Of a stretch of DNA of 60,165 nucleotides, positions 4,997-60,165 are shown piece after piece (the stretch's first letter is position 1; every line of letters starts with the position of its first letter). The notes under the pieces were generated by a model, which ran no database searches, was not told the DNA's origin, and worked only from the letters and a program-made list of their open reading frames with translations. This DNA comes from Escherichia phage vB_Eco_SLUR76, in sequence record LR025195.1. One strand, 5' to 3'. Both the position numbers and the translations under genes were made by a program.

Positions 4997-5221
4997 TTAG
5001 TTAAGGTAGTAATCATCGACGTCGTACCTTGCCATAATTTCGGATGCTTCCGCCGCACTTTCCGCTTCTTCATAAGCTTTCTCAGCGTCATCATAAGTAC
5101 CGTAATACATCCAACCTTCACCCATTGGACGGATGTATGCTTCAAATTTACCAGTACGCGGGTGACGTACAACTTTATAATCCGCGCCCATTGTGCTATA
5201 TACTTTATTCAGCATGACCAT
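4997..5221 (-). CDS. Hypothetical protein
   Basis: ORF with RBS cggagga 8 nt upstream of ATG on the minus strand. Confidence 0.6.
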   Translation of the reverse strand: MVMLNKVYSTMGADYKVVRHPRTGKFEAYIRPMGEGWMYYGTYDDAEKAYEEAESAAEASEIMARYDVDDYYLN

Positions 5222-29075: not shown

Positions 29076-29783
29076 TTAGCAGCAGCCAGTCGGAGGAGTT
29101 GGAGGAGTTGGCAGTTTAAAGTTAACTAACTGCTCAACCTGATTGATTTTACAGGTAAGGCCAGCCGTCTGCGCCAACTGAGAGTTTGCAAAGCGAGCTT
29201 CCTGCAACTGGGACTTCAGGTCACAGATCAGAACAGCTTGCGCTTGTGCGTGCTGATCGCGCAGGAGAGCACGAGTAGCTTCTGCTTGACGCTCGATGTT
29301 TAGGTTGGTTTCGCAGCAACACTTCTGAGCTTCTAACTGAGCCTGGAAAGAACGGGTAATGTTAGCCGCTTCGTTGCTACACAGAGCCGCGAGCACTTGG
29401 CTGGTGCCGCCCTGGATCTGCGTGTTCAGACCAGCAAAGCCCTGAACGGAAGCGAGTAGGTTTTGAGTGTTCTGCTGAGTAATACCGTTATAGGTAGAAG
29501 CAGCGGAGCGCTCAACAGTCAGGTTAGTACCGTTCTGCCCCTGAATGGTCTGAAGAGTACCGTTGTTGATAGCTTGCAGAATTGCGTTGGTGTCAACAGA
29601 AGCTTGCACTTCCACCGGGCCAGCGAAGTTACCGCGACCACCCCAACCACCATTGCCGCCCCAACCATTACCGATCCAGGAACCAATTAAGCCACCGATC
29701 GCGCCACCGATACCAGCCGCACCAGCTTCACCACCGAAACCGTCGCCACCGAGATTAGTAGGTAAAAGAGTCATGTCAGACAT
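29076..29783 (-). CDS. Glycine-zipper / coiled-coil protein ending in Cys-Cys
   Basis: RBS ggagat; GGAIGGLIGSWIGNGWGGNGGWGG then Q/N-rich coiled coil and terminal GCC. Confidence 0.5.
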   Translation of the reverse strand: MSDMTLLPTNLGGDGFGGEAGAAGIGGAIGGLIGSWIGNGWGGNGGWGGRGNFAGPVEVQASVDTNAILQAINNGTLQTIQGQNGTNLTVERSAASTYNGITQQNTQNLLASVQGFAGLNTQIQGGTSQVLAALCSNEAANITRSFQAQLEAQKCCCETNLNIERQAEATRALLRDQHAQAQAVLICDLKSQLQEARFANSQLAQTAGLTCKINQVEQLVNFKLPTPPTPPTGCC

Positions 29784-29955
29784 AGGAAAATCTCCATATA
29801 TGGATTTGTTAAGCGGATGTAACCAACTGGTTACGAAGTAAAGCATACCCCTTAACATGCTTTTTACAATGATCCAAATGTAAAGATTTTGTAAATTAGG
29901 ATTGACAGTCAATAAAAAGCGCGCCCCGAAGACGCGCTGAGGAAGTTAGATGTGG

Positions 29956-32856
29956 TTATGGTAGTGATTCTTTATTAACAAGCGTCGCAACTAACTTTTT
30001 GAGTTCCTCAACTTCAGTTTCAAGTTTTGTAATGCGGTCATCTGCTTCACGACAAACCTGAACCAGAAGACCGGTTACCGCGGAGTAGTCGACGCTAAGG
30101 TAACGTTTACCAAAATCCAAGGTTATATCATTACCTTCTACGTCCTGACCATCCATATATTCATGCTTTGTGAAACTGCTAACAGCTTCAGGTAGTGCTT
30201 CCATAACTTCCTGAGCAATTACACCAGCATAAGGTAGACCGTTCTCCTTAAGTGTATATGTATAACCATTCATTTTCCGAATTGCTTCAGTAGCTGAACT
30301 TATTACCTGTATGTTATCTTTTAAGTCTCTATCGGATGACTGATTAACTGTAACACAGTTAACAGCACCATTTACTTGAAGTTGTAGGCTGTTATCCGGA
30401 TTCTGTTGACCATAAAAAATCCAAGTATCCGATGCATCCGTGTCGGGGTTTTTTACTTTACATTCAATAACTGTCGGTCTATCGGAGTTACCCCAAGTAT
30501 ACAGTTCAATATTCTTAGCAGAATTTCCGCCAGTTAATATGCGCGTAATTCTACCACCATTAACCACAGATAAATTATTTGTTAATAATCTATTGTTAAA
30601 TGTATTTGGCTGTGTCCATATATTTTCAATATCCAAAGCTGCTAACTGATGCCAGGGTGAATCAGTTTTCGATGCTTGTGGATTATCGGAGAGTAGGAAA
30701 CGGTAGTACATTTTACCATCCGCACCAATCCACGCTTGACCAATCCTTGATGTAGCATAGCATGATTGGAACCCTGCCCCATATGTAGGAACCCATGAAG
30801 GATTTGTTGATCCATCGCTAATAAAGCAATCGCGACCGTCCAGAGGTGTATTGGCTCCAAAAGATGAAGTAAGTAGCTTCAACCATTCGCCATTTGTACT
30901 AGCTTCGATTGTTCTAATAAAAGCATTGTTCCTACGACCTGCTATTTGAAATGCGTAGTTTCCGCTAAAACCTACATGTACACCACCATAAACAACATTT
31001 GTAGAATGTTCAGGACCGTTAACGCCTCCAGCAATCCCGTAGAATTTATTCACGGTATTGATTTGACCGTTCCAATCGGATCCAGTTGCTGATAACAATC
31101 CATTTGGGGAACTAAATGTTCCATCCAGATTAAAGTTAAAAAATTGATGTCTGGCAGCAGATGACATATCACGCACAACAATCTGTCCATTGCTATCTCC
31201 TGCGCGAAGTTCTGTCTGATCCAATGTTATATTTTTTTCAGCATTTGTTCTTCTGCTTATAAAAGATCTACCTTCAGTAGAATCGCTATACCCTATAAAT
31301 CCCTGTGTTGCTTGTATTTTTCCAAGTAATGTGAAACTAGGAATTGACGCAATAAAAGAATCACCTGTAGACAGATTATTTGTTAGTGCAAAGTTTTGTG
31401 AACTTCCTTGTCTAAATGGAGAATTGCTATAGAATCCACTACCACCACCTTCAAAGTTAAGGATGTTTGTAACGTTATTCTCCGTGTCACCTTCAGTTGG
31501 AGCGGACACTCCAAACTTAAAACGAACACCATTAGTACCTAAAACATAGTCTTCAATTGGTACTATGACATTTGCCTTGTAACCAACTTGAATCCTAATT
31601 GGAAAAGCTTTTTTGTGGATATAAAAAGCTATATGATTGCTATAATCCTTTTTAGAACCTTTGACGCAAAGTATTCCAACTTCTTTTGGATCATAAGTTG
31701 CTAGATAACCAAAAGCAGCATCTTTCAAATCTGACCAACCGCCACAACGAATGTATCCAAAGAACGAACTATTATTCATCGGATCGTTTGCTGGTGCACT
31801 TTTAGTGACAATATCAACAGGGCATAGCATGTTCCCATACCCGTTCATATTACCTGTATAGATTATAATAGGATAATATTTTTCATCCTCTGACCCTTCC
31901 GGGGCGTTGATGGTTATGATGTTTGACAAACCACCTTCCGGGATTTGGAGATTGGTCTTAGCGTCTGCTATTGTTAAAGCTCCAGTCCCACCTCTATTGA
32001 CAGGTAAAGGAAGATATCTACTACCAGAGACGTCAAATGCGCCCCAACTTATATTATTTTCAACTATAATTTTTGCATTACGATTTGGAGAGTATAAAGC
32101 TGTCTCTGTGCTTGCTTGCGCTAATCTGTCTACTTGACTATAAAGAACACCTTTCCACCATACAGTTCCAGTTTGAGCGGTCCATTTGTAGCTATAAACA
32201 GTTCCTGTCACATCACCTATAAACAAGCCAATAAAGCCCGGGCTTCCGTCCATAGGGGAAATAAAGCCACCTAGAACGTTATCACTATTAGCAATGCCCG
32301 GATACCCGACGGTTGAACTTCTAAGTATTCTTAAAAAACCCAGGAAGCTAGAAGGATTAACAGTAATATCTGCGACATGTCTTGCGCTGCTAGTTAAGCC
32401 GATAGATGCCTTCATGCCATTAGCGGTGTCTTCTGCCTTTTTAGCAGCAGCTTCTGCTTTAACTCTCTCCTGCTCGGATTTAGTAGCAGAAGTAGATGAA
32501 GCGTTCTTAGCTGTTTCGGCTTGTGAAACTAAATCTCTAACCTGTGCAATAACTTCCGGAGTTAATTCTTCCGGGGCCCATGTGGTTAAATAGTTATTCA
32601 GCGTACCTTCTTTACTGTCCGCGTAAATAGCAATTTCACCAGCTTTATAAGGCTCGCTACCTTGAGGCCCAATAATAACCTTGTAATAGCCTGTCTGGAC
32701 GGTGATGTCATAAGTTCCGGTTGCACTTGTTTTAAAGATAGCTTCGCTGCTGGATAATACGGTAAGACTGTTTCCTTTAGCTAAAAGCGCAACTGTAGCG
32801 TTGATAATTGGTTTGCCCAGTCCATCACGCAAAGTACCATATAAACGAGTTGCCAT
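29956..32856 (-). CDS. Long tail fiber protein with C-terminal S74-type intramolecular chaperone domain
   Basis: 966 aa; C-terminus SDRDLKDNI...GVIAQEV...LSVDYSAVTGLL matches the autoproteolytic chaperone domain of tail fibers; RBS gggaga. Confidence 0.8.
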   Translation of the reverse strand: MATRLYGTLRDGLGKPIINATVALLAKGNSLTVLSSSEAIFKTSATGTYDITVQTGYYKVIIGPQGSEPYKAGEIAIYADSKEGTLNNYLTTWAPEELTPEVIAQVRDLVSQAETAKNASSTSATKSEQERVKAEAAAKKAEDTANGMKASIGLTSSARHVADITVNPSSFLGFLRILRSSTVGYPGIANSDNVLGGFISPMDGSPGFIGLFIGDVTGTVYSYKWTAQTGTVWWKGVLYSQVDRLAQASTETALYSPNRNAKIIVENNISWGAFDVSGSRYLPLPVNRGGTGALTIADAKTNLQIPEGGLSNIITINAPEGSEDEKYYPIIIYTGNMNGYGNMLCPVDIVTKSAPANDPMNNSSFFGYIRCGGWSDLKDAAFGYLATYDPKEVGILCVKGSKKDYSNHIAFYIHKKAFPIRIQVGYKANVIVPIEDYVLGTNGVRFKFGVSAPTEGDTENNVTNILNFEGGGSGFYSNSPFRQGSSQNFALTNNLSTGDSFIASIPSFTLLGKIQATQGFIGYSDSTEGRSFISRRTNAEKNITLDQTELRAGDSNGQIVVRDMSSAARHQFFNFNLDGTFSSPNGLLSATGSDWNGQINTVNKFYGIAGGVNGPEHSTNVVYGGVHVGFSGNYAFQIAGRRNNAFIRTIEASTNGEWLKLLTSSFGANTPLDGRDCFISDGSTNPSWVPTYGAGFQSCYATSRIGQAWIGADGKMYYRFLLSDNPQASKTDSPWHQLAALDIENIWTQPNTFNNRLLTNNLSVVNGGRITRILTGGNSAKNIELYTWGNSDRPTVIECKVKNPDTDASDTWIFYGQQNPDNSLQLQVNGAVNCVTVNQSSDRDLKDNIQVISSATEAIRKMNGYTYTLKENGLPYAGVIAQEVMEALPEAVSSFTKHEYMDGQDVEGNDITLDFGKRYLSVDYSAVTGLLVQVCREADDRITKLETEVEELKKLVATLVNKESLP

Positions 32857-57069: not shown

Positions 57070-57360
57070 TTATACTTCTTCCAGGAAATTGGGACTTACC
57101 AGACCTGTATACGCAACTTCGTAAGTATCGTCTTCGCCATCAAGGTCCACATAACCATCTTTACCGAAGGTGACAATAACTGCATGTGGCCATCTGCCGT
57201 CATGAACACTGTATAAATCGGTAACGACCTTGTTAACTGTCACGATAGCACCTTGCGGAAGGACGTTAAAACAAGCCGCATTATCCGGAGTATACCCAAC
57301 ACCACCAATATCGGTCAGTAAACGATACTCTTTGCCTTCAACAATCTCTTCTACACGCAT
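57070..57360 (-). CDS. Hypothetical protein
   Basis: ORF in the early minus-strand operon. Confidence 0.5.
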   Translation of the reverse strand: MRVEEIVEGKEYRLLTDIGGVGYTPDNAACFNVLPQGAIVTVNKVVTDLYSVHDGRWPHAVIVTFGKDGYVDLDGEDDTYEVAYTGLVSPNFLEEV

Positions 57361-57602
57361 TCTTCTTGCTCCTCTACATATTTAGTGACACATTTTTGAA
57401 AATTAAGAACGATATTTTTCTCTTTTACGGAATGAAATTTAACACGTTCTGGACAGATAATCCAGCCTTCAAAACGTTGAGTAGCGTCATTCCATGCTGC
57501 CCGACCATAATACCCGCGATATGGGCCTAATCGCATTGCATTTACCTCTGTAACCACATTGCTGGAGGTGCTGGGTGCAGCGCTTGCACTGGAGTCGCAC
57601 AT
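57351..57602 (-). CDS. Hypothetical protein
   Basis: ORF in the early minus-strand operon. Confidence 0.5.
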   Translation of the reverse strand: MCDSSASAAPSTSSNVVTEVNAMRLGPYRGYYGRAAWNDATQRFEGWIICPERVKFHSVKEKNIVLNFQKCVTKYVEEQEECV

Positions 57603-57859
57603 AAATACCTCCTCGATGCTCTAAAAACAGGTGTGAACTGATAGAAATTGGTTGCATCCGCTTAAAGATGATAGCTATGGAGCAGCTACAAGACGAATTA
57701 TACGTTGACGACTCAGAATTTACTACCAAAATCCATATATTTAGAAAGGATGAGTGCAATATATTCAAAAAGAAGGTAGGTGGGGTCATGGATGTAGGTG
57801 GATAGGGATGTGACAGGTGAGATTTAGGCAAGGACTTACTATCAGGATAGACAGGGCAC

Positions 57860-58010
57860 GCCCCAGCGATCCAAGTACCTGGAAAAGGATGGGTCGGGTC
57901 GCGCGGCTGGGCCTGCGTGGGTCTGTGTGCGCTGTGCGAGCTGTGCGCGACGCTGTGCGTCTGTTTCGCCCGAGCTAATGCATTACCATTACCTATGTAC
58001 ATTAGCTCGC
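57860..58010. repeat. GC-rich tandem repeats (GCTGTGCG-like units, at least 4 copies) plus 10-bp perfect palindrome cgagctaatg / cattagctcg
   Basis: Seen directly inside a 550-bp non-coding stretch between two minus-strand genes. Confidence 0.6.
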
Positions 58011-58150
58011 TAGCGTGGCGCTGTGTGCGTTATTCAATGTGGTTAATTATTGCATAATAGATAGCACATAGTAACACAGTATACAGTGTCAGTGATAATA
58101 TTATCTTCCAGTGATTCATAGCGACCTCACAGTTTAATATTGAATTGTTA

Positions 58151-58480
58151 TCACTCTTGATTAATGTGAGCTGCAAGCATTGCCGCAGTGGCTAACGCCA
58201 AATAGTGCTTGCGAGCGTCATAGTCCGCTCCAAAACGGTCACGAAGGATATTATTAACCTGTTCAACATTTCGATATTGACCGTTTAAAAATAATCTTTT
58301 TACAGTTTGACAATAAGCAATGTCACTATCAAGCGTGGTTTTATTCTTATAGTTATCTTGTTTAATAAGCTCTGCCACTAAGGCTTTACAGCTATAGGCA
58401 TCTAGCACATAATCCGCAGCTTCACAACTATTGACTGCGAATACACCAGCAAACAAAGCAGCAATCAATAGACGTTTCAT
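58151..58480 (-). CDS. Secreted (signal-peptide) protein
   Basis: MKRLLIAALFAGVFAVNSCEA signal peptide; RBS gggagg. Confidence 0.55.
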   Translation of the reverse strand: MKRLLIAALFAGVFAVNSCEAADYVLDAYSCKALVAELIKQDNYKNKTTLDSDIAYCQTVKRLFLNGQYRNVEQVNNILRDRFGADYDARKHYLALATAAMLAAHINQE

Positions 58481-59734: not shown

Positions 59735-60165
59735 ATGTCTAAAGTAACTCACCGCGAACAGGATAAAATGCGCTACACCATGAAAACGAATGCACGCCGT
59801 GCCCTTAAGACCCGTTGGGGTCAGGTTGCACGCGACGCACACGAACAGCTTATCCATCAGGACGAGGTCGGTTTTTACATCGTCGAGAAGGAAGTGCTTC
59901 AGGTGCTGCGCGACCATAAAAAAGCGCAACAGCCGGAGCAGAAAGTACCGGCACCGACCGCCGCGCCAGCTGCCAGCGTCTCGGTACTGCGCCCGATGGT
60001 AAATCCGGAAATCGTCAAAAGCTGCCTCGAAGCTCTGGAGCAGGAGGAAGAGAAAGATATGAAACATGCAAAAGCTGCCACGCAGGTTTCTGAAATCAAA
60101 ATTGAAGAGCCAAAAGCTGCCGCGCCAAAACAGGATGCAAAAGCTGCTCGCTGTGATTTCAAAAA
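59735..60165 (+). CDS. Hypothetical protein, 5' part of the junction-spanning CDS (continues into 1..311)
   Basis: RBS aaaggag then ATG; frame runs through the window end into the repeated start. Confidence 0.55.
   Translation, partial: MSKVTHREQDKMRYTMKTNARRALKTRWGQVARDAHEQLIHQDEVGFYIVEKEVLQVLRDHKKAQQPEQKVPAPTAAPAASVSVLRPMVNPEIVKSCLEALEQEEEKDMKHAKAATQVSEIKIEEPKAAAPKQDAKAARCDFK
60039..60165. repeat. Second copy of the 127-bp terminal overlap
   Basis: Same as 1..127; the reading frame of CDS 59735.. continues into 21..311. Confidence 0.9.

Follow-up and report, generated by a model that had tools for sequence, protein, structure and literature searches.

The early minus-strand operon of the Escherichia phage vB_Eco_SLUR76 is interrupted by a 427-nt non-coding element (57603-58029) that is conserved throughout its genus and evolves under purifying selection, and whose exceptional property is a strong excess of C over G in the minus-strand RNA. 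The order of its parts is tentatively read, at somewhat less than an even chance, as a Rho-dependent terminator that would close a short immediate-early transcription unit and be followed by a restart promoter. A preliminary description of this gap had put forward three candidate roles, namely a packaging (pac/cos) site, a transcriptional boundary with a non-coding RNA, and a recombination hotspot. The boundary is favoured among them, since a stem-loop and a C-rich stretch resembling a Rho site are followed by a conserved putative minus-strand promoter. Positions refer throughout to the window, i.e., the whole stretch of 60,165 nt that was analysed (LR025195.1).

Genomic setting and limits of the element

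The phage of the window belongs to the Queuovirinae, genus Seuratvirus, and its annotation was taken from the record LR025198.1 (vB_Eco_SLUR26), which is 100% identical to the window (window coordinate = record coordinate - 2). Genes for replication and for the queuosine pathway occupy the plus strand at ~1.3-27.6 kb. The gene string of the minus strand opens at ~58.8 kb with small genes that have no assigned function, passes terS/terL (~51.5-49.4 kb) and reaches the genes for tail and lysis, with all structural genes lying downstream of the element on the same strand. The first minus-strand promoter-like site, TAGACA-17-TACTAT, is at 58842-58814, and the gap is located ~0.7 kb downstream of it. 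The break in the otherwise packed operon is real, as no CDS is annotated in LR025198.1 between 57351..57602(-) and 58151..58480(-).

The whole gap (57603-58150) had been taken to be non-coding, which is right for 57603-58029 and probably wrong for its right end. Indeed, positions 58030..58119 (minus strand) probably encode an unannotated hydrophobic peptide of 29 aa (MNHWKIILSLTLYTVLLCAIYYAIINHIE), with a GAGG 5 nt before the ATG and a reading frame that is intact in phage SA80RD (86/90 nt identical). The non-coding element is therefore delimited at 58029. The TAA of the probable ORF (58032..58030) represents its upstream edge, and in other relatives other genes end at the same TAA. On the two sides of the element, the 46-aa upstream protein is restricted to the genus Seuratvirus in homologue searches, while the 83-aa downstream protein is labelled 'Hfq' in the record PQ202980. 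This label was rejected, as the protein has no sequence match in Pfam or PDB and its AlphaFold model (low confidence, pLDDT 61) has no significant structural neighbour. Searches for tRNA and tmRNA genes returned none, and a literature search yielded nothing published on transcription or promoters in Seuratvirus or on this region, and no report of transcripts, 3' ends or Rho dependence.

A separate observation concerns the 8-mer TAACCACA, which occurs in 47 copies in the genome against 1.8 expected, on both strands and with no preferred direction relative to that of the genes. Its copies are kept at orthologous places in distant relatives despite diverged flanks, and two of them bracket the element as an 11-nt inverted repeat.

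Conservation and mosaic variation among relatives

Conservation in related genomes had been suggested as a check on the gap, and the element is indeed present in every Seuratvirus examined. At 89-98% identity, the region 57603-58033 occurs in about 30 Seuratvirus genomes as well as in metagenome contigs; more distant homologues, of ~70% identity, come from Salmonella phage STP-SP5, Hafnia phage yong3 and the metagenome contig L043. The latter emerged from a metagenome scan anchored on the 83-aa protein, which gave one new distant homologue, L043, and L044. Searches of 5,426 E. coli genomes, of GTDB genomes and of other phage genera did not find the element; an IMG/VR pattern scan returned only close relatives and chance matches, and a genome scan for wider homologues gave nothing beyond chance matches. 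A host origin of the sequence was rejected on the lack of any match among the 5,426 E. coli genomes.

Between SLUR26 and the three distant homologues, 75-80% of the aligned columns are identical, whereas in neighbouring genes of the same phage pair identity is 38-58% at the third position of codons, and 74/162 four-fold sites are identical. The element thus diverges more slowly than third codon positions, which indicates that it is under purifying selection. In particular, the blocks ACTATCAGGATGGAC, AAGTACC, TGGGTCGGGT, GCTGTGC and CTGTGTGC are kept in sequence across lineages that are 25-30% diverged.

Around and within these blocks the region varies by modules. Homology to every relative ends at 58033, the stop codon of the upstream gene, and the upstream genes differ among phages. 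In a second form, variant B, positions 57858-57975 are replaced by ~256 nt of mostly different, hairpin-rich sequence (SHIN8, GottfriedDienst, SA126VB, ECP2304, Dru_SM1, Skure and others). A homing-endonuclease gene of the HNH type takes the place of 57603-~57790 in WildeMaa, SA80RD, phiG7, Dru_SM1, Skure and SD04. A 31-nt indel also occurs among relatives, and one hairpin is exactly inverted between SHIN8 and Dru_SM1. As judged from these sequence comparisons, the region is a mosaic junction, defined by the edge at 58033, the exchange between variants A and B, the HNH alternative, the indel and the inverted hairpin. The proposed recombination hotspot thus survives only in an evolutionary sense, as module swaps at the edges and inside. 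The mosaic is compatible with a regulatory reading, as a conserved control region amid variable cassettes is a natural place for crossover.

Composition and order of parts

The gap had been described as GC-rich and of a composition unlike that of the genome. As a whole it is not, with 45% GC against 44% in the genome, and the description applies to 57858-57970 only (67%). What sets the element apart is its G/C skew: positions 57736-57835 contain 35 G and 6 C on the plus strand and rank second in the genome, the strongest skew lying within a glycine-rich coding region at 29.6 kb. In minus-strand order, the parts of the element are the stop of the upstream gene, a stem-loop, a block with C over G, a C-rich stretch, a putative promoter and a leader.

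Right after the stop codon, the end block CGCACACAGCGCC (58010..58029, minus strand) is kept even in distant relatives, and its core GC.CTGTGTGC..TA is nearly invariant in the alignment of SLUR26, slur01, STP-SP5, yong3 and L043. It is followed by a stem-loop (57971..58009, minus strand) that is predicted to be stable, with a stem of 10-12 bp and a loop of 15-19 nt containing two ATTACC words. The stem includes the perfect 10-nt inverted repeat CGAGCTAATG/CATTAGCTCG at 57971-57980 / 58000-58009; a 10-bp palindrome had been reported here and does exist, although its placing at 57980..58018 was wrong. A U tract does not follow the stem-loop on either strand, where GGCGAAAC (minus) and CTAGCGTG (plus) are found instead. 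In STP-SP5, the 10-bp stem differs at four positions of each arm (GAGCTAATGC/..CATTAGCTC vs GAGCTAGCCC/GGGCTAGCTC), and the changes are compensatory. Other hairpins occupy the position in variant B, yong3 and L043, and every lineage has a stem-loop lacking a U tract after the stop codon. The 85-nt segments that contain it have predicted energies of about -18 to -35 kcal/mol across lineages.

The GC-rich block (57858..57970, minus strand, 67% GC) would give an RNA with 39% C and 28% G. It holds GCTGTGCG units (CGCACAGC on the minus strand), a GGATGGGTCGGGTC box and the word AAGTACC. Tandem units had been noted in this part, and three exact copies of GCTGTGCG are indeed present within 57931-57959 (57931-38, 57940-47 and 57952-59), with near copies at 57921-29 and 58019-27. 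The genome contains six exact copies against 2.1 expected, three of the six within 29 nt, and the TRF scores of these repeats are weak (30-39). The block also contains a G-run of the form GGG-N2-GGG-N10-GGG-N7-GGG at 57891-57921.

The C-rich, G-poor stretch of ~120 nt that comes next (57736..57857, minus strand; C 34%, G 8%) is a putative Rho utilisation site on account of its composition and its predicted lack of structure. It contains two conserved boxes, GGTAGGTGGGGT (57775-86) and ACTATCAGGATAGA (57838-51), with a hypervariable spacer between them; read on the minus strand, the boxes kept are CCCGACCCAUCC, UCUAUCCUGAUAGU and ACCCCACCUACC. The 8-nt repeats previously seen in the gap also belong here, as two copies of GTAGGTGG (57776-83 and 57794-801). 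Between the C-rich stretch and the promoter, an inverted repeat ATATATT ... AATATAT (57735..57764) is predicted to fold into a hairpin made only of A and U, and visual inspection of L043 and yong3 showed a similar inverted repeat rich in A/T.

Like every promoter named here, the putative sigma-70 promoter of the minus strand (57697..57725) is a consensus match. It comprises a weak -35, TAGTAA (57725..57720), a 17-nt spacer that contains the half-palindromic operator-like word TTCTGAGTCGTCA (57718..57706), and the -10 TATAAT (57702..57697). In the alignment, STP-SP5 and L043 have TATACT as the -10 and TAG.AA as the -35, and the relatives carrying the HNH gene have an extended -10, TGCTAAAAT, for that gene at the same relative place. 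An overlapping, divergent promoter-like site is found on the plus strand (TTGACG-16-CAAAAT, 57705..57732), with a poorly conserved -10, and is absent from the HNH-carrying relatives.

The element ends with the 5' leader of the 83-aa gene (57603..57696, minus strand), which includes hairpin 2 (57672-57688), hairpin 1 (CATC-CGCTTAAA-GATG, 57655-57670) and a GGAGG ribosome-binding site (57612..57608). Hairpin 2 retains a 5-bp stem in three lineages with all letters different (TAGCT/AGCTA, GTACC/GGTAC and CGCTA/TAGCG). On the plus strand, a 35-nt stretch of this region (57648..57682) has inverted homology to the 5' leader of a glycine-rich late gene (29826..29792; E = 0.002) and forms the longest inverted repeat of the genome. 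The two leaders have a second word in common, AATCCATATAT, at 57730-40 and 29806..29796. The possibility that the element is what remains of a second copy of the glycine-rich gene was rejected, as tblastn and Smith-Waterman scores of the G-rich part were no higher than those of shuffled controls; the 35-nt leader match is the only homology to that gene region that holds.

Coding capacity and RNA structure

A conserved reading frame was not found in the element, as frames are broken among relatives by 1-nt, 31-nt and larger indels and by a run of 13 G. Public records disagree on the presence, strand, frame and length of ORFs in it. The 92-aa ORF of CAjan (AJT60560.1), gp70 of Seurat and small plus-strand ORFs were all rejected as genes, their frames being broken in relatives.

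The element is not a structured RNA either, and structure is supported only for local hairpins. Rfam gave nothing at gathering score and only noise up to E = 10; folding compared with dinucleotide shuffles gave z = +0.60 (plus) and +0.06 (minus), so that neither strand folds better than shuffled sequence; and the RNAalifold covariation term was positive, i.e., a penalty, on both strands, giving no covariation support. Of the suggested transcriptional boundary with a non-coding RNA, the RNA part is thus not supported. A scan for intrinsic terminators found none inside 57603-58029 on either strand; elsewhere in the phage, such terminators follow the genes for the primase, the tail fibre and the 96-aa protein. 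Two further candidates were rejected. A sponge of the CsrB/RsmZ type does not hold as a conserved function, given that GGA shows no enrichment over composition, that copies of GGAT[GA] are lost among relatives, and that both a terminator and an Rfam match are missing. A G-quadruplex at 57891-57921 was discarded because the four-tract run is not conserved.

A candidate Rho-dependent terminator and a putative restart promoter

The first-step criteria of RhoTermPredict ask for 78 nt with C/G > 1 and regularly spaced C (PMC6407284). Scored in this way, 57846..57769 is the best window of the genome for minus-strand RNA: it has 31 C and 6 G (C/G = 5.2), passes the C-N11-13 spacing pattern, and no other untranslated stretch of the phage is as rich in C and poor in G. 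Its ratio far exceeds the threshold of 1 and is higher than nearly all tabulated E. coli predictions, as only 37/4494 validated E. coli predictions reach C/G >= 3 (PMC6407284). Under a stricter filter (C >= 30% and G <= 12% in 80 nt), the C-rich stretch is the sole sense-strand match in the leftward half. Nearly all other matches are antisense to genes, the exceptions being 596-692 and 772-863 on the plus strand, upstream of the rightward operon. A second stretch resembling a Rho site, 5044-5127 (+), was rejected as the antisense of a real minus-strand gene after an intrinsic terminator.

The skew is also a lasting property of the locus. The spacer between the two boxes measures 42-99 nt and exists in 26 distinct versions among 30 loci, all with ~8% C on the plus strand; in WildeMaa, it contains a run of 13 G, which corresponds to poly-C in the minus-strand RNA. 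Strong skew was nonetheless present in 28 of the 30 homologues scanned (best 80-nt window C 25-36, G 3-13), and in 27 of the 30 this window lies just 3' of the same anchor word. Since the skew survives the turnover of the spacer sequence, the constraint appears to act on composition and not on sequence. The C-rich stretch is predicted to be unpaired by RNAalifold and largely open in a single-sequence fold, and it is untranslated, being placed after the stop codon at 58030 and holding no conserved ORF. A minus-strand -10 (TATAAT, TATACT or TGCTAAAAT) follows it in the SLUR26 type, in STP-SP5, in L043 and in the HNH-carrying relatives.

Some features count against this reading. RhoTermPredict demands a pause site, either a GC-rich hairpin or the consensus GGN8YG (PMC6407284); a consensus search found no GGN8YG within 150 nt downstream of the C-rich window, where there are only the A/U-only hairpin and the leader hairpins. 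The conservation of blocks at the level of sequence goes beyond the needs of a plain Rho loading site, and the 28% G of the GC-rich block on the minus strand is atypical of one. The same composition, read on the plus strand, would give a G-rich RNA behind a promoter-like site.

We infer the following course of events from the arrangement of the parts. Transcripts arriving from the right would begin at the early promoter-like site near 58842-58814 and cross two to four small variable genes. Past the last stop codon (58030), the RNA would be untranslated; the stem-loop (58009..57971) would form, and more than 200 nt (~270) of RNA with C over G would be exposed, ending in the C-rich, G-poor 57857..57736. 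The host Rho would load on the C-rich stretch and free RNA polymerase within the next ~100 nt, after which 3' exonucleases would trim the RNA back to the stem-loop, which would then shield the upstream message. The putative sigma-70 promoter TAGTAA-17-TATAAT (57725..57697) would in turn restart transcription, giving the 83-aa gene a leader with two hairpins and GGAGG. In relatives with the homing-endonuclease gene, the restart promoter would be TGCTAAAAT instead.

Comparison with known control elements

The Rho-dependent terminators tR1 and tL1 of phage lambda divide immediate-early from delayed-early genes. The element resembles them in being C-rich and in lying a few hundred nt past an early promoter-like site, after the first small gene(s), between the early unit and the remainder of a long co-oriented gene string. 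However, there is no sequence similarity, and neither boxA/boxB-like nut sites nor an N-like gene were recognised. Moreover, the putative promoter directly after the element means that downstream expression need not depend on antitermination, unlike in lambda.

In T4-type phages, PeSL cassettes (promoter-early plus stem-loop) are proposed to mediate the shuffling of small early genes. The element is likewise a module of stem-loop and putative promoter amid small, highly variable early genes, with edges that are recombination joints. It differs from PeSLs in occurring once per genome and not as a dispersed repeat, in being far longer (427 nt), and in its C-rich stretch, which PeSLs do not have.

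A further likeness in layout is to E. coli itself, where Term-seq showed that Rho-dependent transcripts end just after a stable, protective stem-loop that lacks a U tract, with the Rho site directly downstream (PMC6061677, Dar & Sorek 2018). The element is similarly untranslated and has a stem-loop with no U tract followed by a region of C over G, predicted to be unstructured, of at least ~80 nt. Unlike the E. coli terminators, its C-over-G region is unusually long (~270 nt) and contains sequence-conserved blocks, and the consensus pause element was not found.

Alternative explanations

The element might instead act as DNA, as an array of protein-binding sites in a replication origin (where an R-loop might prime G-rich repeats that adjoin A/T-rich DNA) or in a multi-site operator for a phage regulator. 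Blocks kept in sequence, beyond composition, would suit such an array, as would repeats spaced by about one helical turn (GCTGTGCG at intervals of 9 and 12 nt, with GGGTC, ATTACC and GTAGGTGG twice each) and the adjoining A/T-rich DNA with divergent promoter-like sites. The repeat block is, however, swapped for other sequence in variant B phages, and a spacer varying from 42 to 99 nt would break fixed phasing, both of which argue against phased iterons. DnaA-box-like words are not enriched (one word with two mismatches and one with one mismatch in the region) and a DnaA-box array was rejected, the four-tract run of G-quadruplex type is missing in STP-SP5, yong3 and L043, and the repeats at 900-1350, ahead of the replication genes, are denser and more origin-like. 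We regard a binding array as unlikely.

Slightly less probable again is a plus-strand non-coding or antisense RNA starting from TTGACG-16-CAAAAT (57705-57732). Being G-rich and C-poor, and so Rho-resistant, it would run through the element into the antisense of the first early genes and act as a silencer, an R-loop former or a protein sponge. Its promoter-like site is present, and the word GGAT[GA] occurs six times in 57740-57900 against 1.1 expected, a count reached in 0/2000 shuffles and the densest spot of the genome. This enrichment recalls CsrB-type repeats. Some stem changes, moreover, keep pairing on the plus strand only, as G-U. On the other hand, WildeMaa, SA80RD, phiG7, Dru_SM1 and Skure are viable and retain the core of the element despite a deletion of the promoter-like site, and the -10 of this site decays in STP-SP5 and L043. 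A plus-strand terminator was not found, the RNA folds worse than shuffles (z = +0.6), and no Rfam match to CsrB/CsrC or Rsm appeared up to E = 10. GGA as such is not enriched beyond composition (8 vs 6.8), and the GGAT copies are lost piecemeal in close relatives, a single one being left in L043. A plus-strand function may still exist in those phages that keep the promoter-like site.

The minus-strand C-rich RNA could also go beyond a terminator and act on elongation, by loading a processive antitermination factor or by trapping Rho, so that early transcription runs on. Such a genus-specific, cis-acting RNA, manipulating host Rho or RNA polymerase, is improbable in our estimate. It would set the moment at which transcription moves on from the first early genes to the long co-oriented string ending with the structural genes, and the leader-hairpin loop UUUAAGCG may base-pair in trans with the complementary 5' leader of the late glycine-rich gene (29.8 kb), an RNA-RNA contact that would link early to late expression. 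Position and composition fit this as well as they fit a Rho terminator, the conserved blocks and the hairpin upstream of the C-rich stretch exceed what a plain Rho site needs, and the structural genes all lie downstream on the same strand. Yet a boxA-like word was not seen by eye on the minus strand, there is no conserved two-hairpin fold with covariation, and a known antiterminator gene was not recognised among the neighbours. A promoter directly downstream would, in addition, make read-through needless.

It seems quite improbable that the element is a linker that does little by itself and is conserved as the place where phages exchange the flanking variable cassettes by homologous recombination. 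The mosaic structure described above speaks for it, namely the exact break of homology at 58033 in every relative, the A/B swap at 57857/57976, the HNH gene or promoter segment as alternatives left of ~57790, the 31-nt indel, and the hairpin inverted between SHIN8 and Dru_SM1. However, the element changes more slowly than synonymous sites across lineages ~25-30% diverged, and a strict compositional rule in an otherwise hypervariable spacer is not expected of neutral linker DNA. Exchange of cassettes is, in any case, compatible with a Rho terminator and does not replace it.

Finally, a pac recognition site for a headful terminase is highly improbable: although phased short repeats with a palindrome resemble some pac sites and packaging in Seurat was inferred to be headful from TerL, with no site mapped (PMC4342423), the central block differs between SLUR26 and SHIN8, GottfriedDienst, Skure, Dru_SM1 and SLUR25/63 despite 100% identical terS, and the element lies ~6 kb from terS, although a pac site co-varies with the small terminase gene and is usually located within or beside it, and is less conserved than terS (92-98% vs 98-100%), so that the pac/cos role proposed for the gap can hardly be maintained.

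Implications for Seuratvirus biology

A Rho-dependent terminator followed by a restart promoter is a known and ordinary type of element, while the example described here has no annotation as such, is restricted to a single phage genus and appears wrongly as ORFs in several records. If the reading is true, a boundary between transcription units would be mapped for the first time in Seuratvirus, a genus represented in the BASEL collection and used in work on 7-deazaguanine DNA, and spurious ORF calls would be corrected in many GenBank records. Its value would lie mainly in annotation and in the design of engineered phages, for which the element would offer a natural point of cassette exchange. 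As to the phages themselves, the first two to four variable small genes would form a separate immediate-early unit insulated by the host Rho, thus making the early programme of the phage sensitive to Rho activity.

Complementarity between the element and a late-gene leader

The leader of the conserved non-coding element (57603-58029) shares 35 nt (57648-57682, plus strand) with the 5' leader of a glycine-rich late gene (29826-29792, minus strand); in length, this match exceeds every other inverted repeat of the genome. An 11-mer is also common to both leaders, at 57730-57740 on the plus strand and 29806-29796 on the minus strand. Minus-strand transcription at each of the two loci makes the leader RNAs complementary to each other, and the complementarity covers the GGAG site of the late gene. 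At least 12 nt of it are kept in the Salmonella phage STP-SP5, which carries a distant homologue of the element. The late-gene leader belongs to a cassette (29650-29960, minus strand) that lies downstream of the tail-fibre gene; besides this leader region, the cassette takes in a promoter and the beginning of the gene for the glycine-rich protein (phrog_9288). The same cassette is found at 68-89% identity in T5-like phages (Gostya9, bux, S113 and others) and in Nonagvirus SE1, with compensatory changes in a 5' hairpin.

Variation among relatives and neighbouring reading frames

In relatives L003, L006 (Dru_SM1), L007 (WildeMaa), L015 and L016, the place occupied in the window by 57603 to about 57790 holds a free-standing HNH homing-endonuclease gene, which has its own TGCTAAAAT promoter and takes the place of the promoter and leader segment. 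The presence or absence of this gene is a polymorphism that directly adjoins the conserved core of the element. Variation is also seen within the variant B insert, the mostly different sequence that replaces 57858-57975 in some relatives. Its hairpin reads CAGGCCGTACGAGTTAACGTACAGCCTG in L011 (SHIN8) and exactly the reverse complement in Dru_SM1: this palindromic hairpin differs between the two by a small inversion. In WildeMaa, the variable spacer between the two conserved boxes contains a run of 13 G.

Upstream of the element, an unannotated hydrophobic ORF of 29 amino acids, MNHWKIILSLTLYTVLLCAIYYAIINHIE, is present at 58030-58119 (minus strand) with a GAGG site, and SA80RD likewise carries an intact copy, which differs at three amino acids. 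Directly downstream lies the gene for an 83-aa protein (57351-57602, minus strand), which a single GenBank record (PQ202980) names 'RNA-binding protein Hfq'. The protein has no match among Pfam and PDB sequences, and its AlphaFold model, five strands and a C-terminal helix predicted with low confidence (pLDDT 61), has no significant structural neighbour; the Hfq label is therefore unsupported.

Genome-wide repeats and record ends

The ends of the record (1-127 and 60039-60165) are identical over 127 nt, which looks like an assembler overlap from a circular or permuted assembly, so that the unique genome is 60,038 bp. Across these 60,038 bp, the 8-mer TAACCACA/TGTGGTTA occurs in 47 copies against about 1.8 expected, while the runner-up 8-mer reaches 17. 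Copies are spread at about one per 1.3 kb on both strands, both within and outside coding sequence, and their orientation shows no bias with respect to that of the genes; examples flank the element at 57551-57561 and 58035-58045. A roughly 25-fold excess is likewise present in the partial loci of STP-SP5, Hafnia phage yong3 and metagenome contig L043, where the 8-mer is found at orthologous places despite diverged flanks. It differs from the DnaA box TTATCCACA by one mismatch, and a literature search on it found no paper.

A separate A/T-rich non-coding field at 900-1350, upstream of the replication genes, contains TATAGGGT/ACCCTATA about a dozen times, with both orientations represented. As a candidate origin or multi-operator region, this field is a better one than the element at 57603-58029.
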